Assembly (NCBI GenBank): GCA_964643895.1 | Contig: CAZXUE010000001.1 | Span: forward strand, 17,083 to 81,082 | DNA: 64,000 nt | Direction of reading: 5' to 3' | Origin: an uncultured Candidatus Saccharibacteria bacterium | GTDB taxonomy: Bacteria; Patescibacteriota; Saccharimonadia; Saccharimonadales; UBA7683 | Shown here: positions 4,547 through 58,050 of the stretch, in pieces | How positions within the stretch are numbered: position 1 is the first letter of the stretch | Layout: each line of letters begins with the position of its first letter | The notes under the pieces: model-generated | Databases searched by the model: none | The model's input: the letters and a program-made list of their open reading frames with translations, nothing else | What the model was told of the DNA's origin: nothing | Position numbers and translations under genes: made by a program

Positions 4547-7500
4547 TTACGCCTCCTCCTCTGTCTCGGGCGTGGCCACGAGATCGTCATCATCTTGATT
4601 ATCGTCAGTTGCAAGTGGGTCATTAGTCGCACTATCAGAGGTGCCTATGTCATCAAGTACTTCAAATTCACTAGCTACCATTTCTTCAGTCACATCCATC
4701 GGCGTTGCCTCGGCTGTTACTTCTGGTAGATTTTCAGCTTCTTCAGCAACGGTCGCTTCAAGCACTTCCTCAGCGTCAACTTCAATACCGTTTTCATTGA
4801 TTAAATCAACTCTCAGGCTTAAGCCTTGGAGCTCTTTCACAAGTACGTTAAAGCTTTCTGGAATTTTTGGTCCCACAATTGGTTCTTGCTTGATGATGCT
4901 TTCATAGGCTTTTGAACGGCCGTAGACGTCATCAGACTTCAGCGTCAGCATTTCTTGCAAAGTATTGGCAGCGCCGTAGGCTTCGAGTGCCCATACTTCC
5001 ATCTCTCCAAAACGTTGACCACCATTTTGAGCCTTACCACCAAGCGGCTGCTGGGTAACCATCGTGTATGGCCCGATACTTCGAGCATGAATTTTATCAG
5101 CGACCATGTGGTGCAGCTTGATAATGTGCATTACACCGACTGAAACACGTTCTTTAAAGTATTCACCAGTTCGGCCGTCAATTAACGACTGTTTGCCATC
5201 TTCAGGTAAACCAGCCTTCTTGAGTTCGGCCTTAATAGCATCGACTGGTACACCATTAAAGGCCGGGGTTGCAACCTTGTATCCAAGTGCACGCGCTGCC
5301 ATACCAATGTGAGTTTCAAACAGCTGACCGATGTTCATACGTGATGGCACACCAAGCGGGTTAAGCACGATATCAACAGGCGTACCGTCTTCCATAAATG
5401 GCATATCTTCTTCTGGCATAATGCGGGCGATGACACCCTTGTTACCATGCCGCCCCGCCAACTTATCACCAACCGCAATCTTACGCATTTGTGCAACAAA
5501 CACCTGAACCTGCATTAACACGCCTGCTTTAAGATCGTGACCGTTCGCGCGGCTGAAGATCTTTACGCCAACAACCTTGCCGTGCTTACCGTTACTCATA
5601 CGCTGAGAGGTATCACGAACGTCCTTGGCTTTTTCACCAAAAATTGCGCGAAGTAGACGCTCTTCCGAACTTAGCTCTTGCTCACCCTTTGGCGTAATTT
5701 TACCAACAAGGATATCGCCAGCTTTCACTTCTGCGCCAATGCGAACCACACCATTTTCATCGAGATGACGCAGACTTTCTTCAGACACATTTGGAATATC
5801 GCGAGTAACGATCTCAGGGCCAAGCTTAGTTTCTCGCACCTCAACCATGTAGTCGGTAATGTGGACAGATGTTAGTTCGTCATCTTCTACCAGCCGTCGA
5901 GAGATAACAATAGAATCTTCAAAGTTATAACCATTCCATGGCATAAATGCCACCACTAGGTCTTTACCGAGTGCGAGTTCACCATCTTCCACACTCATAC
6001 CCTCAATTATTACGTCGCCAGCCTTCACTTCGTCACCAGTGCTAACAACAACTTTTTGGTTCATGCTTGAACCTTCGTTTGTGCGAACAAAATGCTGTAG
6101 TTTGTAAGTTTTAGAGGTCTTCTCGTATTTCACGATAACCTCATTGCCATCAGCCTTCGTCACCTTACCGGTACTTTCAGCATAAATAACCTGGCCGCTA
6201 TTGGCTGCCACAATGGCTTCCATACCCGTGCCAACCACTGGGGCTTTGGTTTTAATCAGCGGAACAGCTTGTTTTTGTTGGTTTGAGGCGATGAGGGCAC
6301 GACCCACGGCATCCTTTTCGGCAAATGGAATGAGTGATGCAGTTGAACCCAAAATTTGGTTACGTGCAGCATCCATGTGAGTTACTAATTCGGCGTCAAC
6401 CTCTTCAGGCTGCAGTTTCACACGAGCCGAAACACGTTCGTCTTCAAAGGTGCCGTCAGCTGTAAGCTCAAGACCAGCTGACGCAATAACAGCCCGTTTT
6501 TCTTCATCAGCATCAAGATACACAACCTCTTTGGTAACTTTACCGTTTTTTACCACGCGGTAAGGGGTTTCAATGAATCCGTAATCATTAACACGAGCAT
6601 GCGAACCCAGGTTGAGCACCAAGCCAATGTTGGCGCCTTCAGGCGTCTCTACCGTACAAAGACGGCCATAGTGAGTAGCATGCGCATCGCGCACTTCAAA
6701 GCCAGCACGTTCGCGCGAAAGACCACCAGGACCCATCGAACTCAAACGGCGCTTGTGAGCAAGTTCTGAAAGTGGATTAGTTTGATCCATAAATTGTGAA
6801 AGCTGTGATGAAGCGAAGAACTCGCGAACCGCAGCTACAATTGGACGTGCGTTAATTAGTTGCGCTGGGGTTACCGTTTCAATTTCAGACATACTCATGC
6901 GGTCTTTGGCGTTGCGCTCCATTCGCAGGAGACCAATACGGAATTGGCGCTGTACGAGCTCGCCAACCAACTTCACCCGGCGATTTGCAAGGCTATCAAT
7001 ATCATCTGGTGCTTCTTGTGTGTTGTTCAGGCGAATAATTTCTTTCACAATGGCAACTAAATCGTCGAGGCGCATAACGCGGTTTTCGGCCACGTTCGCA
7101 ACATCGATATCAAGCCGCTTATTCATCTTGTAACGGCCAACACGGGAAAGATCAAAGCGTTTAAAGTTAAAGAATACATTTTCAATCAGGCTGCGGGCGT
7201 TATCAACAGTTGCAAGATCGCCAGGGCGGATACGGCGATACACCTCAATCAGCGCATCACTGTTGCCTTTACTTGGGTCTTTTGCCAGTGTTGCTTCAAG
7301 GTAACTGACCTCACCATTATCAACATCCTTAAAGAGCTCTTTTAGCTGCGCATTTTGCGAGTACCCGAGCGCACGAAGTAGTGTGGTAACAGGAAGCTTA
7401 CGGCGGCGGTCAATTTTTACATAAATTGCACCGTTGGCCGCTGTTTCAAACTCTAACCACGCACCACGGCCGGGGATCAGCTTGGCGCCGTATACATTCC

Positions 7501-8324: not shown

Positions 8325-8909
8325 TTACTTAATTGGTTTTGTGACGATTTTGTCTACCAACCCGTACTTCACGGCTTCGTCTGCGGTAATCCAAAAATCT
8401 CGCTCCATGTCCTCATGGATTTTCTTTATGGTTTGGCCAGTGTTTTTAGCCATAATTGCTTCAAGAAGGCGTTTTACTCGAAGCGATTCTCTCAGATCAA
8501 TTTCTTGGTCAGTTACCTTGCCGCGAGTGCCGCTGGAAGGCTGATGTATCATCACCGTCGCGTTTGGAAGTAAAAACCGTTTACTTTTTGCGCCGGAACT
8601 GAGGAGAAAGGCCGCCGCCGAAGCCTGCACGCCAATACCAAAGGTTTGCACATCGTTACCGATGAACTGCATAGTGTCATATATCGCCAAAGCGTCGTAC
8701 ACACTACCACCCGGGCTGTTAATGTAAAGATAGATGTCTTTTTTTGGATCTTCACTTTGCAGAAATAGCAGCTGAGCAACAATCAAGCCAGCGGTGTGTT
8801 CATTAACCTCATCGTGTAGAAAGATAATTCGTTCTCTAAGAAGCCGACTATAGATATCAAAGGCGCGTTCGCCTTGACCGGATGGTTCAATTACGGTTGG
8901 AATTAACAT
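8325..8909 (-). CDS. clpP: ATP-dependent Clp protease proteolytic subunit
   Basis: [25 protein letters not shown]-terminus. The Ser-His-Asp triad context is intact ([26 protein letters not shown]). Confidence 0.95.
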
Positions 8910-8926
8910 ACTGTAATACTAGCAAT

Positions 8927-8953
8927 TTAGCACTCAAAACACAAGAGTGCTAA
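8927..8953. promoter_or_regulatory. CIRCE (HrcA operator) inverted repeat upstream of clpP
   Basis: ttagcactc-aaaacacaa-gagtgctaa is a perfect match to the CIRCE consensus TTAGCACTC-N9-GAGTGCTAA. It ends 17 nt upstream of the clpP ATG. Confidence 0.8.
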
Positions 8954-8995
8954 ACACTATTGTTTAATCTTGACTGTTGTGATATAATAAAAAGT

Positions 8996-9391
8996 ATGGA
9001 TACATCGCAGGCCATGAAGCGTAAGGTGGTTGAGCTGACCTTTTCGCGTGATTTTGAAGCGCTACTATTAGCGCACCCCACTCCTCATACCTCGTTGACA
9101 CACGACCTTGAGTTGGCAATTGAGCGTGGCCTCGAACGTCTAACCGAGCTTGAAGATGTACGAGAGTTGCAGCATCAGACCCTTATCTCCCATTTAGTAA
9201 CGCAAACCAACAGGTATCGAACCATGGAAAGCGATTATTTTAATCATTGGAAGATCGCACTTTCAGAAGATTTGCTTGATGAGGTTGATTTGCTTTTTTT
9301 AAGCCATAGTAAAGATCTTGTTCAGCTTGGTTTGTTCGCCGAAACCACCGCTGCCGTTTTACTGCTGCTCGCTGTTGCTGGATTGCGGTAA
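8996..9391 (+). CDS. hypothetical protein (possible C-terminal TM helix)
   Basis: 131-aa ORF from the first ATG. It has no Shine-Dalgarno (SD) sequence. It lies opposite the tig-clpP orientation and converges and overlaps with the 9359-9598 ORF. Its coding status is uncertain. Confidence 0.25.
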   Translation: MDTSQAMKRKVVELTFSRDFEALLLAHPTPHTSLTHDLELAIERGLERLTELEDVRELQHQTLISHLVTQTNRYRTMESDYFNHWKIALSEDLLDEVDLLFLSHSKDLVQLGLFAETTAAVLLLLAVAGLR

Positions 9392-24482: not shown

Positions 24483-27137
24483 ATGAAGAAAAACGACAAG
24501 AAAGCCGCAGCTGGCTCGATCCGTAAGCCCTCGCATCGAAAAGGCGCCCACTCGGTCTATAGTAATCTCGCTACGAAAAAACGTGTAAAAGCTGATGCTA
24601 AATCACGTAAGAAGGCAGAATTCTTAGCCACCCTACCTAAATCCCGATTAAAGCGTGCTGCCTACCGGTTACATCCAAAACGATTCTTTAAGTACTGGTT
24701 CTCTAAGCAGGGTGCAATTATGGCACTGAAGCTAACTGGCCTTGGGTTGGCTGCAGGGATTATCTTAATCTTAGCTGTCTTTGCTATCTTCCGGAAAGAT
24801 CTTGCCATTGGTCCGGATGAACTTACTAAACGTGTCCAGAGTCGCACCACTAAATTTTATGATCGCACAGGCCAGGTATTGCTCTATGAACTGTACAAAG
24901 ATCAGCAACTCACTTTTGTAAAACCTGATCAGATCAATAACAACATGAAGTGGGCCACTGTTGCCATTGAAGATAAAGACTTTTACAAGCATGGTGGTTT
25001 TGATATTCGCGGGATTATCCGTTCTGTATGGGTAAATGTAAGCGGTACTGGTAAGCAGGGAGCATCGACTATTACCCAACAGCTGGCTCGTAATGTAATT
25101 TTGGAGGACAATACGCGCTCGGGTATTGCAGGTTATACGAGAAAGCTCAAGGAGGTTATTCTTTCGATCGAACTAGAGCGCACGTATTCGAAAGATGAAA
25201 TTCTTAATTTTTATCTGAACTCAATTGGATATGGAGGAACTGCCTACGGAGTAGAATCTGCCGCGCAGCGCTATTTTGGCATCTCCGCGAAAGACTTAAG
25301 TATTGAGCAAGCCGCCTATATTGCCGCCATCCCTCAATATCCCAGCCTTTACGATAGCAACAGTCCAAGCTTTGACCCCGAGGCTACGCTCGCACGTCAG
25401 CGCACAGTCATAGATTACATGCGGGACCAAGGTTATATTAAATCCAGCGATGCCAAAAATGCCAAAGAGGTTGATATTTTAGCAAGTATTAAGCCGCTCT
25501 CCAGTGAGCCGACTGCCAAAAAAGCACCTCACTTTGTAGACGAGCTCGTCAAACAACTTGAAGGTAAATATGGCGCTGATAACGTTCGCAAAGGTGGTTG
25601 GCGCGTTACCACCACGCTCGATTGGGACATGCAGCAAATTGCCGAAAAATCAGTTGCCGACAATATGAACGCTGTTGAAAGACAACGGGGTGATAACGCA
25701 GCTCTTGTGGCAGTTGACGTACCAACAAACCAGGTCTTAACTCTTGTTGGCAGCCGCGATTACAAATATCCAGGCTTTGGCTCATACAATGCCGCAACTG
25801 CAAACTTACAACCAGGTTCGAGTCTGAAGCCGATAGTGTACAGCAAACTTTTTGAAGGAAACCAATATGGCCCAGGAAGCACATTGGCAGATGATAAAAA
25901 GTGCTGGGGTAGTTGGTGCCCTAACAACTTTGATAAAGGCTTCCGCGGCGGCATCTCTATCCGCCAGGCCTTGGCGGAATCTCGTAATATCCCCGCCATT
26001 AAGGCAGCTGAAGCCTCAGGCATGGCTTCAGTTATTGATCTTGCTAAAAACATGGGAGAAACTGGAATTGGATGCGGCGAGAGCTGTGATTCGCTCGGAC
26101 TGGCTATCGGGAGTGGCAGCGTGAGATTAGATCAGCATACTGCTGCCTATGCGACACTCGCTCGCGGCGGTGTATCTAAACCCGAAACGTATGTGCTAAA
26201 AATTGAAAAATCAAACGGTGAAATTGTACAGGAATGGAAAGATAGTGCCGGCACCAAAACCATGGGTGAAAAGGGCGAGGAAATTTCATTCCTCATAAGC
26301 GATATTCTCGCTGACGATAGATCGCGCCGCGTTACCTTCGGCAACCCTGTCGCCTTCAACCCACGAGGCGTTAAAGCAGCCGTGAAAACTGGTACGACCG
26401 ATAACGCAAAAGACGGCTGGATGATGGGCTACTCGCCAAAACTTGCTGTTGGCATCTGGGTTGGCCGCTCAGACGGTACTGTCATGAATAGCACCACCCA
26501 CCTTCAGACCGGACCAATGTTTGGTGATTTTATGGCGCGTGCTCATGCCGAAGTCATGACGAAGCCACAATACGGCTACAAGGCTAATGAGTGGTTCACC
26601 AAACCTTCAGGCATTCAAACAATCAGAGTTTCAGGCAGAAGCGACATGTTCCAATCATGGTATAAGAAGCCTCGCGAGGTAAACAAAGATTTTGTGATGG
26701 ATAAGGTTTCGCGAAAACTAGCAACTGACTGTACTCCACCAGCCGCCAGAGAGACTATTCAAGTTATGAGCGCTATCGACCCCGTTACCAACCAAGAAAC
26801 CACCGGCACCCCGCCAGAAGGCTGGGACATCAAGAACAACGACGATGTACATCAGTGTGGTGTTGAGGCAGCCACAGGATTCACGCTTGGTGATGTGGGT
26901 GACCCCTCTCGCACGCGAACCCTTAGCGTGAACTTTGCAAGTGGTCCAAATGCTCCTCAGACCGTGGAATTCATTGTGAATGGGCAGGTTATCAGCACGC
27001 AACCAGGTAGCGGCAGCAGCTATAGCACCTCCTACACTTTTCCGGGCCAAGGCACTTACACGATTCAAGTCCGTGTTACCGACAACCTCTACTATCAGTC
27101 CACCTCGTCATCTCGAACCATCCAGATCACTAGTTAA
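24483..27137 (+). CDS. penicillin-binding protein 1A (bifunctional glycosyltransferase/transpeptidase)
   Basis: GT51 motifs (EDKDFYKHGG, TITQQLARN) and a transpeptidase domain. There is an ~85-aa basic cytoplasmic N-terminal extension and a Ser/Thr-rich beta-sandwich-like C-terminal extension. Confidence 0.9.
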   Translation: MKKNDKKAAAGSIRKPSHRKGAHSVYSNLATKKRVKADAKSRKKAEFLATLPKSRLKRAAYRLHPKRFFKYWFSKQGAIMALKLTGLGLAAGIILILAVFAIFRKDLAIGPDELTKRVQSRTTKFYDRTGQVLLYELYKDQQLTFVKPDQINNNMKWATVAIEDKDFYKHGGFDIRGIIRSVWVNVSGTGKQGASTITQQLARNVILEDNTRSGIAGYTRKLKEVILSIELERTYSKDEILNFYLNSIGYGGTAYGVESAAQRYFGISAKDLSIEQAAYIAAIPQYPSLYDSNSPSFDPEATLARQRTVIDYMRDQGYIKSSDAKNAKEVDILASIKPLSSEPTAKKAPHFVDELVKQLEGKYGADNVRKGGWRVTTTLDWDMQQIAEKSVADNMNAVERQRGDNAALVAVDVPTNQVLTLVGSRDYKYPGFGSYNAATANLQPGSSLKPIVYSKLFEGNQYGPGSTLADDKKCWGSWCPNNFDKGFRGGISIRQALAESRNIPAIKAAEASGMASVIDLAKNMGETGIGCGESCDSLGLAIGSGSVRLDQHTAAYATLARGGVSKPETYVLKIEKSNGEIVQEWKDSAGTKTMGEKGEEISFLISDILADDRSRRVTFGNPVAFNPRGVKAAVKTGTTDNAKDGWMMGYSPKLAVGIWVGRSDGTVMNSTTHLQTGPMFGDFMARAHAEVMTKPQYGYKANEWFTKPSGIQTIRVSGRSDMFQSWYKKPREVNKDFVMDKVSRKLATDCTPPAARETIQVMSAIDPVTNQETTGTPPEGWDIKNNDDVHQCGVEAATGFTLGDVGDPSRTRTLSVNFASGPNAPQTVEFIVNGQVISTQPGSGSSYSTSYTFPGQGTYTIQVRVTDNLYYQSTSSSRTIQITS

Positions 27138-27176: not shown

Positions 27177-27554
27177 ATGCTTACCGCCCTGAGAGGCAGC
27201 AAGCTATGCGTGCTATCAACAATTTCGAATGAACAACCACAGTCAGCATTAGTGGCATTTGCAGAGGATGCTAGAGGAAATGTATATTTTCAGAGCCAGA
27301 AGCATTCGCGCAAAAATCAAAACATAAGTAAGAATTGTCGTGTATCTCTAGTGGTAGGCTGGGAGCTAGAAACGTTAATAACCCTACAATACGAAGGTGT
27401 TGCACAGAAAGTGATTCCGGGGCATATAGAACGAAGCAAGGAGCTGTTTCTAAAAAAGAAATCTCCCTCAACAATTGAGTATTTGAATCACCCAGACGCT
27501 GTGTTCTACGGTATTCAGATTATTCTCAAAATACCGTGTGGGAAGTTACTTTGA
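27177..27554 (+). CDS. pyridoxamine 5'-phosphate oxidase-like FMN-binding split-barrel protein
   Basis: LSTISNEQPQSALVAFAED…GNVYFQS…CRVSLVV matches the PNPOx/general stress protein 26 pattern. Confidence 0.6.
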   Translation: MLTALRGSKLCVLSTISNEQPQSALVAFAEDARGNVYFQSQKHSRKNQNISKNCRVSLVVGWELETLITLQYEGVAQKVIPGHIERSKELFLKKKSPSTIEYLNHPDAVFYGIQIILKIPCGKLL

Positions 27555-28343
27555 ATTGATGGTAGCGATGAGTTTGTCTTCGGCGGTTTGTTTTTTAGGG
27601 AACGACGGTTTTCTTCTGGATTGTTTTTGCGATTTATGAATACTATCGGGCTTGATGGTTTCGGTCATTTTGGCGAACATCATGCGGCCGGCGGTTGTCT
27701 GGAGGTTGCGGGTGAACTCTACCTTGACGGTTTTGTTGCGAATACTGCCAGCGTTCTCTATTACTACGAGTGTACCGTCGGGCAGGTAACCGACGCCTTG
27801 GTTGCGCTCTTGGCCTTTACCAACAATTTTGATTTCTGTTGTTTCCCCTGGGATGGTTGTTGGTCGCAGGTTTTGAGCTAATTCATTTACGTTGAGCACC
27901 CTCACCCCTTCAATTTCTGCAACTTTCAACAGGTTAAAATCGGTTGTAAAAAGCATCGCCCCTTGTTTGAGAGCCAACTTTACCAGCTTTTCATCAACTC
28001 CAGATTCAGATTTAATATCATCACTGACGATACCCACGCTCACCTGTCGACTGTCTTGAAGGTCTTGTATTACTTGTAGCCCGTAGCGAGCTCGTTCACG
28101 CTTTAAATGATCTGCTTTATCAGCCAGCAGCTGCAGCTCAGCAATCACGAACCGTGGAATAACAAGCTGTGTGGCCACGAAGCCAGAGCGAACAACCTCT
28201 AGCACCCGGCCATCCATGAGAGCACTAGTGTCGAGAAGAATACGATTTTTCGTACGATTGCTGGTGCGCGGCAGCAATCGCCATAGGATGATACTGCTTA
28301 AAGCAAAATTGAGTATTGTAATGATGGGTAATGCGTAATTCAT
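27546..28343 (-). CDS. yacL: PIN/TRAM domain protein (YacL family)
   Basis: N-terminal TM, a PIN domain (LLDTSALMDGR…) and a C-terminal TRAM-like domain. It sits adjacent to radA, as in Firmicutes. Confidence 0.75.
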   Translation of the reverse strand: MNYALPIITILNFALSSIILWRLLPRTSNRTKNRILLDTSALMDGRVLEVVRSGFVATQLVIPRFVIAELQLLADKADHLKRERARYGLQVIQDLQDSRQVSVGIVSDDIKSESGVDEKLVKLALKQGAMLFTTDFNLLKVAEIEGVRVLNVNELAQNLRPTTIPGETTEIKIVGKGQERNQGVGYLPDGTLVVIENAGSIRNKTVKVEFTRNLQTTAGRMMFAKMTETIKPDSIHKSQKQSRRKPSFPKKQTAEDKLIATINSK

Positions 28344-28404
28344 GATCTTCTAATACAATTATTATACTGGATTCTCGATCAGGTCGGGAATGAAAGAACG
28401 GATT

Positions 28405-29748
28405 TTATGCTTTCAGATACGTATTGAGAGCGTCCTTCAAAGATGAAACCGATGCCAAAATGGTTGATTTTGTATCAGATTTTGGCCCGACAGCTTTTTT
28501 AAATCCGAGATGTTTTACCTCTTTTAGGCGCTGTTCGATGTTTGGCACATGGCGAACCTCTCCGGAAAGTCCAACTTCGCCAAACACCACTGCATCATCC
28601 TTCAGCTGCATACCTTTGGCAGCCGAGGCGATTGCCATACATACCGCTAAATCTGCCGCGGGCTCAGTAATTTTTATACCACCAACCACATTGATGTATA
28701 CATCATGTTCGCTTAAATCAAGCTTGGTACGACGGGTTAGCACTGCGGTAAGTAAGTTAAGGCGATTGAGATCAAATCCAGAGGCGGCCCGTTTTGGATA
28801 CCCAAATGAAGTCCGATTTACCAAAGCCTGAATTTCTACCAGAATTGGCCTAGTACCTTCCATGGCAGCCATAACAATCGAGCCATCCGCCACTTGCCGC
28901 TCGGCTAAAAGCACGGCTGAAGGGTTACTTACCGGTTCCAAACCAGAGTCTTTCATATCGAATATGCCGACTTCAGCAGTTGAACCATAGCGGTTTTTTA
29001 CCGCTCTGAGCACTTTGAACCCACCATAGCGATCACCCTCCAAATTGAGCACCACGTCTACAAGATGTTCAAGCAACTTTGGCCCCGCTATATTTCCCTC
29101 TTTGGTAACATGGCCTACTACTATCAGCGTCGTTCCGGACTGTTTTGCGGCTTGCGTGAGAAGATATGTGCTATTAGTAATTTGACTTACTGAGCCAGGC
29201 GCCGAGGCGACAGACTGGCAAGAGACAGTCTGAATTGAATCTACAATGACAACCTTATAACTACCCGTGAGAATGGTTTGTGCAATGTCATCACTGCTTG
29301 TTGAGCTAGCCAAAAGTACTTTTTGATCTTTCGGTGTAATACGGCTTGCTCTCAGGCTTACCTGTTCCAAAGATTCTTCGCCGCTCACATACAGCACTTG
29401 CTGATTTTTAGAAAGTTGCGCCGCAAGCTGCATTAACAGCGTACTTTTACCAATGCCTGGCTGTCCGGCAATCAAGTTTACGCTGCCGGCGACAAACCCG
29501 CCGCCCAGCACGGTATCAACATCTGGTACAGCAGTTTTTAATCGTTCTGATTTTTGTGATTTTTTTAATGCTCCGATTGGTGTTGCAGCCAGCTCATTAC
29601 CTTTTACTGCGGCAAGTGCTGCATCTTTACTCAGCGGCAGCTCCTCCACCAAACTGTTCCAGGCCCCACAGTTACTACAGCGACCAGCCCACTTGCTGTG
29701 CCGCCCGCCACACTCCTGACACACAAATTGTACCGAAGATTTTGCCAT
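28405..29748 (-). CDS. radA: DNA repair protein RadA/Sms
   Basis: CxxC-x-CxxC zinc finger, GQPGIGKST Walker A, the KNRYG motif and a Lon-like C-terminal domain. Confidence 0.93.
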   Translation of the reverse strand: MAKSSVQFVCQECGGRHSKWAGRCSNCGAWNSLVEELPLSKDAALAAVKGNELAATPIGALKKSQKSERLKTAVPDVDTVLGGGFVAGSVNLIAGQPGIGKSTLLMQLAAQLSKNQQVLYVSGEESLEQVSLRASRITPKDQKVLLASSTSSDDIAQTILTGSYKVVIVDSIQTVSCQSVASAPGSVSQITNSTYLLTQAAKQSGTTLIVVGHVTKEGNIAGPKLLEHLVDVVLNLEGDRYGGFKVLRAVKNRYGSTAEVGIFDMKDSGLEPVSNPSAVLLAERQVADGSIVMAAMEGTRPILVEIQALVNRTSFGYPKRAASGFDLNRLNLLTAVLTRRTKLDLSEHDVYINVVGGIKITEPAADLAVCMAIASAAKGMQLKDDAVVFGEVGLSGEVRHVPNIEQRLKEVKHLGFKKAVGPKSDTKSTILASVSSLKDALNTYLKA

Positions 29749-29772
29749 GTATGCTTTTAGTATATCATCCGG

Positions 29773-30735
29773 CTACTGAATGGTCTGGTAACTGCTATCG
29801 AGCCCTTTAAGCAGATCGTTCTGAGTGGCCGCTAGCTCATTGCGCTCAGCTACAATAGAGTTGTAGATTGCGATAATCTCCTTCAGGATAGCTACGTCGT
29901 CATTAAATGTTCTCACAAGCTGGTTAAAGCCTGGCACCAGCTGATTATAGGCTTCGATATCCTCGGAAGATTGGAGCTGATTTAAGCGCGATCTCTGGTT
30001 CTCAATAACGCGTTGTTGGCTAGCCAAGGATGCTTCTTTTTGGTCTTTCTCTTGTTTTAGCTCAGCCAGTTTTGTGTCATATGTTTTAATCTGCGCCTCG
30101 ATCTCGTTAAAGGTATCGGCATACTGCTGGGCATAGCGTACAATCTTAGCTCTATCTTTAAAATAACGTTGATAATGAGCTTCGAGCGAGGCGGGCAAGA
30201 TTGCAATTTCGGTGCCTAAAATGGAGTGAAGCTCGTTATCAACCTGGTTAGGTTCTGATTTTTTATACTGATCAAGTGTGGCAATAAAACGCTCATCTTC
30301 AATTGCAGCTGCTGCTGTACGAAGCTGCTGATTAAGCGCATTTTTTTCAGAAGGAGAGAGCCGTTCATACACCGCATGAAGCAACTCGTGAGCCGCAGTC
30401 ACCTCCTGAACACCATCTAAGCGCTGGTCGGTGACATTATAGATATAAAATCTCTGCTTTGTGTAACACCCAAGCACAACGCTGTGCTCACGATGCACGC
30501 CGCCGCACGCCTGGTTAAACTTTGTAGCATCCAACACTTCCGGCTGGCTTGCTTTATACAAAAATTGACCCTTATTTGTAAGGTTAAGACTTGGCATTAA
30601 GGCTGCGGCTTGCGATTGAAGCGGATTTTGATACACCACATACTGATCTTTCACATACTGGCGGTTAAGGTATACCCACCCCCCCATTGCCAGTAGTAAC
30701 GTAATCCCAAACCCCGCGAATAGTCGACGTTTCAT
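29773..30735 (-). CDS. membrane-anchored coiled-coil protein with HExxH motif
   Basis: MKRRLFAGFGITLLLAMGGW signal-anchor, AAHELLHAVYE (HExxH), and a long Q/E-rich coiled-coil C-terminus. Confidence 0.55.
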   Translation of the reverse strand: MKRRLFAGFGITLLLAMGGWVYLNRQYVKDQYVVYQNPLQSQAAALMPSLNLTNKGQFLYKASQPEVLDATKFNQACGGVHREHSVVLGCYTKQRFYIYNVTDQRLDGVQEVTAAHELLHAVYERLSPSEKNALNQQLRTAAAAIEDERFIATLDQYKKSEPNQVDNELHSILGTEIAILPASLEAHYQRYFKDRAKIVRYAQQYADTFNEIEAQIKTYDTKLAELKQEKDQKEASLASQQRVIENQRSRLNQLQSSEDIEAYNQLVPGFNQLVRTFNDDVAILKEIIAIYNSIVAERNELAATQNDLLKGLDSSYQTIQ

Positions 30736-30837
30736 ACCGTTATTGTATATCAATACCCGGCCTCTTACTATCACCATTCTCAATCATAAGTGCACGGGTA
30801 AAATTAAGCCGGCATAAAAGAACCAGGGCAGCTGAGG

Positions 30838-33348
30838 CTACTTTGTTGTCGACTGACTGGCTCTAGACTTTGCGACAGCTTTGACCACTGGAGAAACAAT
30901 GACTTTACCTTTTATGGCAGCGACATCAAAATGAGTTACTTCTGGAGAGAGTCCGGCAATCACTTCCTCGGCAATCTGGTCTTCAATCTCGTCTTGCAGC
31001 TCACGCCTCAAAGTTCTGACACCACTTTGTGGTTTGTAACCTTTTTTGAGCAGCACCCGTTTGGCTTGCAACGAAACCCGAATACTAAGGTTATGCTCTT
31101 GCTCCAAGCGTTGGTTGAGCTCTTCAATCTGTAGATTGAGCACTTGCAGCGCCTCTTTGTTGGTCAGGGCACGAAAGATCACAACTTTATCGATACGGTT
31201 AATTAATTCTGGCCGCATGGCGCTTTTGAGCTCTTCCATAACACGCTCTTTGTTGTCTTCGTGCAGTTCATCGAGATCAGACTGCTCGTCATCGTTACTC
31301 ACACGGAACCCAAGGCTAGATTCTCGCTGCAACTGTTCCGCACCCACGTTTCCGGTCATAATAATAACCGTATTTGTGAAATCAACGGTTCGACCTTTTG
31401 CATCTGTCAAGACGCCGTCTTCCAATATCTGTAACAACATGTTAAATATATCGGGGTGTGCTTTTTCAATTTCGTCAAGCAAAATAAGACTATACGGGTT
31501 TCTGCGTACTTTGTCGGTCAATTGACCGCCTTCTTCGTACCCCACGTAGCCAGCAGGGGCGCCGACCAGCCGCGAGGCTGTGTGCCGTTCGGAAAACTCA
31601 CTCATATCAATTTTTATCAAAGCATCACTGCGATCATATAGTTCACGAGCTAGCACGCGCGCCAGTTCAGTTTTACCTACACCGGAAGGACCTAAGAATA
31701 CAAACGAGCCAATTGGGCGAGTGCGAGCACTGACGCCTGACCGATTACGGCGAATTGCCCGGGCAACTGCTTGCAAAGCCTCAGATTGGCCAATAACGTG
31801 CTTTGCCAGGGTCTTCTCTAAATTCATGAGGTAGCTAGCCTCTTTTTTAAGGATCTTCTGAGCTGGAATACCGGTAATGAGGGCTACCGCGCCTGCTAAA
31901 TCTTGCTCTGTCATGATAAGACGACTACGGAACTTGCTACGTTGCTTTTCCAGCGTTTCCTCAAGCTCTGCAAGCCTTACTTTGTGCTTAGCAGCCACTT
32001 CAAAGTTCTCATGAATGACCGCTTCTTCCATGCGATGACGATATAACTTAATTTCCTTCAAAAGTTTTCGTTGCGTTTCAGGCACATGCGAGCGTTCCAC
32101 CCGAATATGAGCCGCCGTTTCATCAAGTAAATCAATCGCTTTGTCTGGCATGAACCGTTCTGCCATGTAGCGCTCGCTTAAACGAACTGTTTGTTCAATA
32201 ATTGTATCATCAATGCCAACGCCATGATGGGCCTCGTACTTTGCCTTAAGACCGCGCAAGATCGCAACCGTTTCCTCCACGCTTGGCGGCAATACTTGCA
32301 CACTTTGAAAGCGCCTTTCTAGTGCAGCATCTTTTTCAATACTTTTTTGGTACTCGTCAATAGTTGTCGCACCGATAACCCTCATCGTGCCCCGAGCAAG
32401 TACCGGTTTTAAGATATTAGCGGCATCAAGCGCGCCTTCGGCGGCACCCGCACCAACTAGCAGGTGAATTTCATCGATAAAGACAATCACGTTACTATCG
32501 GCCGCAATTTCCTGCATGATGGCTTTGAGACGCTCTTCAAACTCGCCACGATATTTGGTTCCGGCAATCATCCCTGCGAGGTCGAGCATAACAATACGTT
32601 TATCAAGTAGGTTTTCTGGGGCTTTTTCTTCAGCAATGCGTTGTGCCAAACCTTCAACAATTGCAGTTTTACCAACGCCCGGCTCTCCAATGAGTACAGG
32701 ATTGTTTTTAGTGCGTCTTGAAAGAATGGTGATCACGCGCTGCAACTCTTTTGCTCGACCAATAACCGGATCCAACCGACCCGCTCTAGCTTCTTCGGTT
32801 AAATCTGTTCCGAAGAACTCTAGTGCACTCTGAGCTTTTTTATTACGAGGTTTTTTGCCAGTTGCAGCCTCTTCATACTCAAAGCGCTGCTGGTTGAGAT
32901 AGCCCTCAAGCTCTGAAGTTAAGTCATCAACGTTGATGTTCATATCACGCAGCAGTACATTTGCCCGCGCATTTTTCTGAATAAGAATACTGTAGAGAAT
33001 ATGTTCCGTACCGCAATAATCTTGATTAAATTCTTTGGCTATCTCCCAGCTCGTTCGTAGAGTTAATTTAGCCGCCTCACTCAAGCCTTTGCCGCCAGCT
33101 AGGTTAATAACCAAGGCTTTCGGAGTTAGCTTCAGGGCGGTGCGTGCTCTATCGAGCGTTACACCTGATGTCTCTAAAAGTTTTGCACCAATTGAGCCAT
33201 TTTGACTAAGAACCCCTAGTAGAATATGTTCCGTGCCAATATAAGCACTGCCGAAACCCCGAGCAATGCCTTCAGCATGCTGAAGGCTGTTCCGCGCGTT
33301 CTCCGTCAGCCGGTTTAAAAATTCCTGAAAATCTTTTGCCGAGTTCAT
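30838..33348 (-). CDS. clpC: ATP-dependent Clp protease ATP-binding subunit ClpC
   Basis: Two Clp_N repeats and two AAA+ modules ([16 protein letters not shown]) with a short middle domain. That architecture is ClpC-type rather than ClpB. Confidence 0.92.
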
Positions 33349-33364
33349 ACTCCCATTGTAGCAC

Positions 33365-33391
33365 TTAGCACTCCAAACACAAGAGTGCTAA
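33365..33391. promoter_or_regulatory. CIRCE (HrcA operator) inverted repeat upstream of clpC
   Basis: ttagcactc-caaacacaa-gagtgctaa is a perfect CIRCE. It ends 16 nt upstream of the clpC ATG. The spacer is nearly identical to the clpP copy. Confidence 0.8.
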
Positions 33392-55910: not shown

Positions 55911-56615
55911 CTAACTTGGTGTAAGTATCCAGCGGGTAACCTCTTCACGGAGACGCCGGTATTCTGCCTCCTCAAATTGCATATTAGCGATACAAAAACG
56001 ATAGCCGCTGATATTTGAACAGAACATACTGTCCTGCATGTCCCCGCAATCATGCATCATAAGGCAATCCGTTAAGCCCCCAGATCTGGTGATTCCAAAG
56101 CTATTCGCGCACTGGCCACTATCTTCTGCTCGTATACAAAATGTGAGTGGACCACCTGACTGTGAGGCAAAAACAAACTCACTATCATGAATATTATCAC
56201 TGTAGTAGATATCTTTTGAGCGGAAAATGTCACGGGAATGAAAGACGTTTTCAGATTCTTCCACCATATCAGATTCGGCAACGTTAATACCATCTACCAC
56301 AAACTCCGTGGTTATAGCGTTAATACCGTTCCATTTGGAAAGAATATCCTTTAGATCTTTTATTGGCTGTGTGGCGTAAAGACCCTTTGTAGGTGAAGCC
56401 TCGTTGTTGCGGGCGTTTTCCATTTTGACAAATCGTGAGGCACTAGCCGAAGCACTCCATGTCGTACTGCCATCGGTATAGTCCTTCACTTTATTTGGTA
56501 AGTAGATATCGAAAGTAAACTTCTTAATCGCTTGTTCAAGGCTGAGTGGGTTTTCAACACCAAAAATCTGCTTGATAATCTTATCGAGCGCAATCTTTGC
56601 TTGTTTTTTATCCAT
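55911..56615 (-). CDS. Cys-containing repeat protein, tandem paralog A (234 aa)
   Basis: ~70% identical to paralog B. It has conserved FCIR, CxNSFG, DCxMMHDCGDMQDSMFCSN and FCIANMQFEEAEY blocks. The start lies 13 nt after the paralog B stop, with no SD. Confidence 0.75.
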   Translation of the reverse strand: MDKKQAKIALDKIIKQIFGVENPLSLEQAIKKFTFDIYLPNKVKDYTDGSTTWSASASASRFVKMENARNNEASPTKGLYATQPIKDLKDILSKWNGINAITTEFVVDGINVAESDMVEESENVFHSRDIFRSKDIYYSDNIHDSEFVFASQSGGPLTFCIRAEDSGQCANSFGITRSGGLTDCLMMHDCGDMQDSMFCSNISGYRFCIANMQFEEAEYRRLREEVTRWILTPS

Positions 56616-56628
56616 ACTACAAATTGTA

Positions 56629-57333
56629 CTACGAAACCGGCGAGAGTATCCATTGAATGACTTGGTCTCTTAGCCGATAGTATTCGGCCTCTTCGAACTG
56701 CATGTTTGCAATGCAGAATTGTTTGCCATTCATGTTACTACAGAACATACTGTCTTGCATATCACCACAATCGTGCATCATTATGCAGTTAGTTAAACCA
56801 GCTGAACGAGAAACACCAAAGCTATTCGTGCACCGCACACTATCGTCCGCACGTATGCAAAATGTCACAAAGCCGCTCCGCTGTGAACCAAAAACGAATT
56901 CACTATCAAATACACTGTCACTAAATAGAATGTATTTAGACCTATCAATATTGGTCGATCTAAATACGTTCTCTGAGTTCATAACCATGTCTGATTCCGA
57001 AACATTGAGGGAATCTAATGTAAACTCTGAGGTGGTTAAATTAACGTGTTCCCATTTTGAAAGAAGGTCGGCAAGATCTTTTATAGGCTGCGTGGCATAA
57101 AGACCATCATGTTCATTACCATTATTTCGCGCATTATCAATTTTAATAAACTTAGTAGGATTCGGAGATGATGTCCATGTATCAGATCCGTCTGTACTAT
57201 CTTTGACTTTTTCAGGAAGACGAACATCGAACGCAAATTTTTTGGCGAACTCCTCAATTGAAAGTGGGTTTTCAACACCAAAAATTTGTTTAACAATTTT
57301 GTCGAGCGATTCTTTTGCTTGTTTCTTATCCAT
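56629..57333 (-). CDS. Cys-containing repeat protein, tandem paralog B (234 aa)
   Basis: Collinear with A and C. The N-terminal ~25 codons are ~80% identical to A at the DNA level. Confidence 0.75.
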   Translation of the reverse strand: MDKKQAKESLDKIVKQIFGVENPLSIEEFAKKFAFDVRLPEKVKDSTDGSDTWTSSPNPTKFIKIDNARNNGNEHDGLYATQPIKDLADLLSKWEHVNLTTSEFTLDSLNVSESDMVMNSENVFRSTNIDRSKYILFSDSVFDSEFVFGSQRSGFVTFCIRADDSVRCTNSFGVSRSAGLTNCIMMHDCGDMQDSMFCSNMNGKQFCIANMQFEEAEYYRLRDQVIQWILSPVS

Positions 57334-57345
57334 GCTAAGAGTGTA

Positions 57346-58050
57346 CTACGAAGTAGGTGAAAGTATCCATTGCACAACTTGTTGACGCAAATGTTCGTAC
57401 TCTTGCTGGGTAAACTGCATGTTCGCTATGCAATATTGACGGCCTCGCATGTTGGTACAAAACATACTGTCTTGCATGTCATAGCAATCGTGAATGAAGA
57501 ACGAATTATTGATTTTGCTGCTCCACGAAACACCAAAACTATTAGAACATTCGCCGCTATCTTCAATTCGTATGCAAAAAGCGTTGCCGCCAGATCGAGA
57601 ACCCGCTGCAATAAACTCTGAATCTTCTACGCCATCTGAAAAGAGTACATTTTTGCTGCGGCGGATATCTTGCGATCTATAAACGTTTTCGGATTTCAAG
57701 ATACCATCACTTTCTGCAACACCTATAGATTCAATTTCCCTCTCGGTAGTGGTTAAGTTAATTTCGTTCCACTGCGCCAGAAGCTCCTGCAGATTATTGA
57801 TCGGCTGTTTTTCGCGAAATCCATCGTTTTGCTCGTAGCGTGCTCGCGCATTTTCCATTTTTATAAACTTAGTTGGGTTAGTTGAGGAAGCCCAGGTTGG
57901 CTCGTTGGTTGTAGAATCATAAACCATTTGTGGCAAACGCACATCAAAAGCAAACTTTTGCATAAACTGCTCAAGACTGAGTGGGTTTTGATAGCCACAA
58001 ACCTGGCCAATAATTTTATCGAGTATTTGCTTTGCTTGATCGGCGTTCAT
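57346..58050 (-). CDS. Cys-containing repeat protein, tandem paralog C (234 aa)
   Basis: ~45-50% identical to A and B, with the same length and block order. AGAGGA SD 7 nt upstream. The start lies 12 nt after the ATPase stop. Confidence 0.75.
   Translation of the reverse strand: MNADQAKQILDKIIGQVCGYQNPLSLEQFMQKFAFDVRLPQMVYDSTTNEPTWASSTNPTKFIKMENARARYEQNDGFREKQPINNLQELLAQWNEINLTTTEREIESIGVAESDGILKSENVYRSQDIRRSKNVLFSDGVEDSEFIAAGSRSGGNAFCIRIEDSGECSNSFGVSWSSKINNSFFIHDCYDMQDSMFCTNMRGRQYCIANMQFTQQEYEHLRQQVVQWILSPTS

Follow-up and report, generated by a model that had tools for sequence, protein, structure and literature searches.

The 64-kb window, by which we mean the whole stretch of DNA analyzed here, has a GC content of about 0.46 and carries on its minus strand clpP and a gene for a ClpC-type ATPase, each of them preceded by a perfect copy of the CIRCE operator. 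The CIRCE consensus used is TTAGCACTC-N9-GAGTGCTAA, with arms of 9 bp each and hence 18 arm positions in total. The features at the two loci are as follows.

8325-8909, minus strand: clpP, 194 aa; Pfam CLP_protease with 1.9e-75 and 253 bits, NCBIfam NF001368 with 283.9 bits (cutoff 249)
8916-8921, minus strand: -10-like TAGTAT of clpP, 17 nt after the -35 and ending 6 nt before the ATG
8927-8953: CIRCE operator 1, read on the plus strand as TTAGCACTC-AAAACACAA-GAGTGCTAA with 0 mismatches to the consensus, and on the minus (gene) strand as TTAGCACTC at 8953-8945, TTGTGTTTT at 8944-8936 and GAGTGCTAA at 8935-8927
8939-8944, minus strand: putative -35-like TTGTGT of clpP in the spacer of operator 1, a 3/6 match to TTGACA
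8960-9391, plus strand: divergent small ORF with its putative promoter; ATG at 8996, 131 aa
27546-30783, minus strand: genes 3' of clpC, namely a conserved gene without assigned family (about 320-336 aa), radA and a PIN-domain gene
30838-33348, minus strand: clpC, 836 aa; in Pfam it shows Clp_N (two repeats), AAA+ (two modules) and ClpB_D2-small
33355-33360, minus strand: -10-like TACAAT of clpC, 16 nt after the -35 and ending 6 nt before the ATG
33365-33391, minus strand: CIRCE operator 2, TTAGCACTC TTGTGTTTG GAGTGCTAA on the gene strand, 0 mismatches
33377-33382, minus strand: putative -35-like TTGTGT of clpC in the spacer of operator 2, a 3/6 match

The motifs that hold the catalytic Ser, His and Asp of ClpP can be read directly in its translation (QASAAAF, MIHQPS and ERD), and its orthologs at 79-96% identity carry the names Saccharimonadales or Saccharibacteria ClpP. 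For the 836-aa AAA+ protein, the best PDB matches are ClpC of S. aureus, ClpC of B. subtilis and ClpC1 of M. tuberculosis (6em9, 3j3s and 8a8u), each aligned in one unbroken stretch, and an LGF tripeptide in its translation is a candidate for the (I/L)GF loop that docks onto ClpP; judged by these features of its sequence, the protein is the ClpC-type partner of ClpP. ClpB fits less well: the score against the NCBIfam ClpB equivalog is 867 with a cutoff of 1232, and the match to ClpB structures is split into two stretches. The genes downstream of clpC (27546-30783) may be co-transcribed with it, and radA may have a promoter of its own since a -10-like TATACT lies 10 nt before it.

The nearest relatives of both proteins are found in MAGs named "Candidatus Saccharimonadales" or "Candidatus Saccharibacteria". 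Contig JAXMAA010000003.1 (isolate STL-PAT16) encodes a ClpP 96% and a ClpC 94% identical to those of the window and carries, like the window, both CIRCE-clpP and CIRCE-clpC (loci L116 and L156). In the cultured Southlakia epibionticum ML1 the gene orders are rpoC-rpoB-clpP-x-tig-hisS (SEML1_0490-0496) and nusA-clpC-unknown-radA (SEML1_0513-0510) (PMC10633639), and the neighbourhoods of clpP and clpC in the window share them, with a PIN-domain gene added after radA; the order clpC-unknown-radA-PIN occurs also in loci L151-L156, and SEML1_0510-0512 matches it. The source organism is a member of the Saccharimonadales (Saccharibacteria/TM7, CPR) with a reduced genome, and no Firmicute, so that the frame of the original prediction, in which clpP was set against the CtsR control usual in Firmicutes, does not apply.

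As for the operator itself, the palindrome at 8927-8953 had been described as a perfect CIRCE whose end is 17 nt away from the start codon of clpP, on its upstream side, and both statements are borne out, with no mismatch to the consensus and a gap of 17 nt (8910-8926) before the ATG at 8909-8907. Missing from that description were the minus-strand position of clpP, the -35-like element inside the operator, and the second operator, which stands 16 nt from the clpC ATG at 33348. A scan of the 64 kb with up to 3 mismatches gives only these two sites, both perfect and both at clp genes, compared with a mean of 0.03 sites in the shuffled window, where 0/100 shuffles reach two. Because the sites precede clpP and clpC, the operators stand on both subunits of one protease, and each overlaps the putative -35 and the promoter spacer of its proteostasis gene.

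Conservation was examined at ortholog loci that were fetched via their proteins (L142-L147 for clpP and L151-L155 for clpC), which makes the sampling independent of the DNA motif. All these loci have CIRCE in the same register before clpP or clpC. Upstream of clpP it departs from the consensus at 0-2 positions in L142 (the complete 1.21-Mb genome CP064993.1) as well as L143-L147, and it is perfect in the closest relative (L116, L135); upstream of clpC it is perfect in L156, L151/152, L153, L154/155 and L109, the last being a Saccharibacteria MAG where one CIRCE precedes a clpC-clpP operon. The ClpC proteins of L151-L156 are 63-94% identical to that of the window. When lineages are compared, with clp orthologs spanning 63-96% protein identity, the 18 arm positions are 100% identical at clpC and 93% at clpP, and the adjacent 40 nt are 27-38% identical, i.e. 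at random level. By this comparative measure, CIRCE at the clp orthologs is under purifying selection.

The operator is also found outside the clp genes in these lineages. An identical 27-mer CIRCE precedes dnaJ in three Saccharibacteria loci (L012, L016 and L141), which means that the group does possess the chaperone side of the regulon known from classical cases. Among the loci retrieved, CIRCE in Saccharimonadales stands at dnaJ, clpP and clpC, and in other CPR lineages at hrcA; none at groESL or at hrcA-grpE-dnaK came from Saccharimonadales proper. A metagenome scan with the exact spacer gave 14 loci, the two relevant ones being L135 (clpP) and L141 (dnaJ). A scan of a genome collection used a spacer-restricted CIRCE pattern, so that the spacer content of its sites is subject to pattern bias, and the matches listed were mostly from Firmicutes and Proteobacteria, though the central loci from Saccharibacteria and other CPR were among them.

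The sequence around the operators resembles a promoter fitted to them. On the gene strand clpP reads TTAGCACTC-TTGTGTTTT-GAGTGCTAA-ATTGC-TAGTAT-TACAGT-ATG, and clpC reads TTAGCACTC-TTGTGTTTG-GAGTGCTAA-GTGC-TACAAT-GGGAGT-ATG. Similar arrangements are seen in the relatives, for example TTAGCAGTC-G-TTGACA-CC-GAGTGCTAA-TAACTG-TATAAT in L144, TTAGCACTC-TTGACA-CAA-GAGTGCTAA-TTCTA-TATAAT-AGAGGT-ATG in L109 and G-TTGACA-TA-GAGTGCTAA-AAGCG-TATACT-TATAGT-ATG, preceded by further operator sequence, in L151. At the place of the clpP -35 in operator 1, L142-L147 and numerous further CPR sites have TTGACA, in gene orientation only, and at the corresponding place of operator 2 the relatives have TTGACA, TTGCAT or TTGTAT; the -10 of the window clpP, TAGTAT, is replaced by TATAAT in L116, and that of clpC, TACAAT, is identical in L156. 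Across the tabulated sites of Saccharibacteria and other CPR, 26 of 27 have their best -35 match in the spacer in gene orientation, usually TTGACA, together with a TAnnnT scoring 4-6 of 6 at 16-18 nt from it. In the reverse orientation, which is the natural control offered by a palindrome, such -35/-10 pairing is rarer and the matches are weaker, and the layout in gene orientation thus indicates a core promoter built around the operator. Neither clp promoter of the window was called by a generic promoter scan and both -35 elements match at only 3/6 positions, so the promoter assignment in the window rests on the comparison with relatives. On this basis, operator and core promoter are probably fused: the -35 would sit between the two CIRCE arms, and the right arm would fill the promoter spacer. 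In a non-exhaustive literature search, no published description was found of an operator built into a promoter in this way.

The same layout has a consequence for the transcripts. In the window, 6 nt separate each -10 from its ATG, and neither clpP nor clpC has a Shine-Dalgarno sequence at a usable distance; the two mRNAs are therefore probably leaderless in the source organism, as far as can be told from their upstream regions. This seems to be no peculiarity of the clp genes, as 8 of the 50 long ORFs of the window have a TANNNT that stops exactly 6 nt short of the start codon, where the background is about 1.5 at each position, a peak from which leaderless or near-leaderless mRNAs seem common in the genome. 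The leaderless feature is not universal, since L142, L153 and L155 have the same operator-promoter module and leaders of 50-60 nt with an SD sequence. As a separate observation, TANNNT ends 6-8 nt upstream of window starts much more frequently than at other spacings, and the starts concerned include those at 24483, 35687, 39657, 40381, 44387, 57333 and 62127. The leaders of clpC in L154/L155, from a more distant Saccharimonadales genome, contain, at about 5953-5973 and downstream of the -10, a shorter second palindrome TTAGCAACATAACTGTGCTAA, which could represent either a half-spaced CIRCE in degenerate form or an RNA hairpin.

With regard to the repressor, a profile search detected no HrcA in the 64 kb, nor at the clp loci that were retrieved from Saccharimonadales. 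In the cultured Southlakia, SEML1_0720 is annotated as HrcA (PF01628, PF03444, K03705) and lies beside grpE-dnaK (PMC10633639). In other CPR, hrcA stands directly 3' of CIRCE-promoter modules and ahead of grpE-dnaK (L017, L025, L026, L032, L036, L082 and L124). With about 230-250 aa the HrcA proteins of CPR are short, and that of L017 matches Pfam HrcA and HrcA_DNA-bdg above the cutoffs. Among the best 120 homologs of the L017 protein only other CPR lineages are represented, and three contexts (P0180, P0198 and P0129) show hrcA-grpE-dnaK from other CPR groups and share no contig with a CIRCE-clpP genome. The hrcA operators of some of the other CPR are variants, namely TTAGCAGTC-N9-GACTGCTAA in L150 (7969-7995) and TTATCACT with AGTGATAA in L148 (9935-9961) and L149 (7959-7985), where TTGACA overlaps the left arm; such symmetric half-site changes suggest a co-evolution of operator and repressor.

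A check for CtsR boxes and ctsR at the clp genes had been proposed along with the original prediction, and its outcome is in agreement with it. The box was searched as the tandem heptad RGTCAAA-NAN-RGTCAAA with up to 3 mismatches, and the window contains 11 matches where 7.4 are expected, which is chance level, with none upstream of clpP or clpC. The genes ctsR-mcsA-mcsB do not precede clpC in the window; nusA is directly upstream instead. The annotation tables of Southlakia have no entry for CtsR (PF05848), ClpX or Lon (PMC10633639). The claim that clpP belongs to the HrcA regulon is thus well supported on comparative grounds, by the conserved register, by the lack of CtsR boxes and ctsR, and by the presence of hrcA in the order.

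In view of the above, we consider it highly probable that 8927-8953 is a functional HrcA-responsive CIRCE operator with a twin at clpC, and that ClpC-ClpP of this organism would belong to the HrcA regulon of the chaperones, with no CtsR system. Geometrically, the left arm would lie upstream of the -35, the -35 in the 9-nt loop and the right arm in the 16-18 nt between -35 and -10, with the -10 starting 4-6 nt past the right arm. A HrcA dimer bound to both arms would then lie over the -35 and the promoter spacer, excluding RNA polymerase. If the GroEL feedback established in B. subtilis operates here too, unfolded proteins would occupy GroEL, HrcA would become inactive, and transcription of clpP and clpC would begin; the stress induction of both genes, like their transcription start sites, is a prediction of the same conditional kind. 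Since the mRNAs are probably leaderless, CIRCE would act at the DNA level only.

A more far-reaching reading takes HrcA as the sole proteostasis regulator in Saccharimonadales and the wider CPR, with its operator built into the core promoter, the -35 inside the CIRCE spacer and ClpC-ClpP as a principal target, and explains the apparent essentiality of hrcA by a toxic excess of ClpCP and chaperones. It bears on the Tn-seq results of Southlakia, where hrcA (SEML1_0720) is scored essential and clpP and clpC non-essential (PMC10633639, supplementary table 1), and this essentiality could come either from toxicity of de-repression or from polarity on grpE-dnaK. Were that reading true, ClpC-ClpP would be the only soluble AAA+ protease kept, the start at promoters with a built-in operator would often be leaderless, and the essentiality in Southlakia would not be due to polarity on grpE-dnaK; we regard it as possible and rather doubtful.

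For operator 1 alone, the main target could be the divergent 131-aa ORF (8996-9391, plus strand) and not clpP. The operator is palindromic and ends 6 nt before a promoter-like site of this ORF, which consists of a plausible -35, TTGTTT (8960-8965), a 17-nt gap and a TG-extended -10, TGATATAAT (8980-8988), with the ATG 7 nt later. However, the ORF was found, among the loci compared, in the closest relatives only, and its product has no match in Pfam or NCBIfam; in L142-L147 the upstream gene is co-directional and yet the register of CIRCE and clpP -10 is kept. Moreover, a site upstream of a -35 represses less well than one covering it, and the same design is present at clpC, which has no divergent neighbour. 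We hold it very unlikely that the ORF is the main target, although it might be influenced by operator 1.

That CIRCE is an RNA-level element, either a terminator or stabilising hairpin of the upstream gene or a 5'-UTR hairpin for mRNA stability or translation, is to be judged very unlikely. It can fold into a 9-bp stem with a 9-nt loop, it lies 3' of co-directional genes (tig or a small ORF before clpP, nusA before clpC), and the clp mRNA has a leader in some relatives; against this, no T-run follows either copy, a terminator scan gave no match at either site, and an Rfam scan of the window gave one tRNA only and hence no known RNA family at the CIRCE sites. The arms are moreover kept as sequence and not as pairing: in L143-L147 the left arm TTAGCAGTC pairs with GAGTGCTAA or GAGTGCCAA, and as the change is uncompensated in the other arm, a protein-binding site is favoured over an RNA helix. 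In every lineage the -10 is downstream of CIRCE, so that CIRCE would be outside the clp transcripts. It is likewise very unlikely, finally, that some regulator different from HrcA recognises the palindrome, or that the site is a relic after loss of hrcA, as the failure to find this gene in the window might suggest, for 18/18 arm positions match the HrcA consensus at two loci, CIRCE stays perfect down to 63% ClpC identity beside randomised flanks where a relic would have decayed, and HrcA is annotated in a cultured Saccharimonadales member with the same gene order.

An HrcA operator at both clp genes can be compared with known systems. In B. subtilis, CIRCE is located past the -10, in the region where transcription starts. 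The window differs from the B. subtilis type in that its clp genes bear CIRCE and no CtsR box, in the -35 within the spacer and in the probably leaderless mRNAs, and the CPR HrcA differs by its short length. The same in both are the identical operator TTAGCACTC-N9-GAGTGCTAA, a repressor on sigma-70-type promoters and, presumably and by analogy, the logic of HrcA titration by GroEL (PMC8957991, PMC7737663).

The original prediction treated a clp gene under HrcA as unusual, which has to be tempered in the light of precedents at clpP of S. salivarius and at lon and clpB of Mollicutes. In S. salivarius, clpP is under dual control of CtsR and HrcA, according to Chastanet & Msadek (2003, J Bacteriol 185:683) as cited in PMC3842655 and PMC6305308. 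In both cases an upstream CIRCE places the protease under HrcA; the difference is that HrcA of S. salivarius acts together with CtsR, whereas the window shows neither a CtsR box nor ctsR and has CIRCE at clpC as well. In Streptococcus caledonicus (L118, NZ_JBHSOJ010000022.1) a perfect CIRCE stands 78 nt 5' of clpP, which fits the dual control reported for S. salivarius. In Mollicutes (M. pneumoniae, M. gallisepticum and Spiroplasma), CIRCE stands at dnaK, dnaJ, clpB and lon, and HrcA is the most conserved transcription factor (PMC7737663, PMC4245973, PMC5138195). Mollicutes are the closest functional parallel to the clp CIRCE of Saccharimonadales: both have reduced genomes with one conserved stress repressor over chaperones and the main cytosolic AAA+ protease, and in M. 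pneumoniae, as in the window, the protease gene with the CIRCE follows closely after that of trigger factor, although the protease is Lon in Mollicutes and ClpC-ClpP in Saccharimonadales. Since Mollicutes and Saccharibacteria are unrelated phyla, the similarity is probably convergent. CIRCE at the clp genes is conserved, and that a familiar regulon reaches the main protease of the cell in this way is no surprise.

What is new is the HrcA/CIRCE system in the Saccharibacteria lineage, ClpC and ClpP both under CIRCE without CtsR, and, as far as the literature search reached, the design with the -35 in the spacer; a full-text literature search found no paper on HrcA in Saccharibacteria or CPR, the one match being an Enterococcus paper on another subject. 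To our knowledge, very little has been described of how Saccharibacteria and other CPR regulate transcription. The repressor, its operator and promoter, and the targets clpP, clpC and the genes of the dnaK system form a testable conserved unit for CPR, and Saccharibacteria have genetically tractable members (Southlakia, TM7x). The results suggest a second reduced-genome lineage in which one GroEL-sensing repressor serves both refolding and degradation, and the compact module of a CIRCE with TTGACA in its spacer and TATAAT after it could be put to use in the genetics of CPR, as a part for stress-inducible expression.

Some further observations concern the operator in other bacteria and the remaining genes. 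Among the non-CPR matches listed (L010-L127), CIRCE is often located before htpG and clpB in Clostridia MAGs, and before rpoH in the Betaproteobacteria Oxalobacter and Comamonadaceae. The membership of the HrcA regulon varies between lineages. The minus-strand gene at 29773-30783, of about 320-336 aa, lies between clpC and radA in all Saccharimonadales loci examined (SEML1_0511 in Southlakia); its product has no match in Pfam or NCBIfam, is predicted to have an N-terminal membrane segment and a coiled-coil-like C-terminus, and could be a ClpC-associated factor. At 55911-58050 the minus strand of the window carries three tandem paralogs of 234 aa each, 3' of a 670-aa ATPase-like gene.
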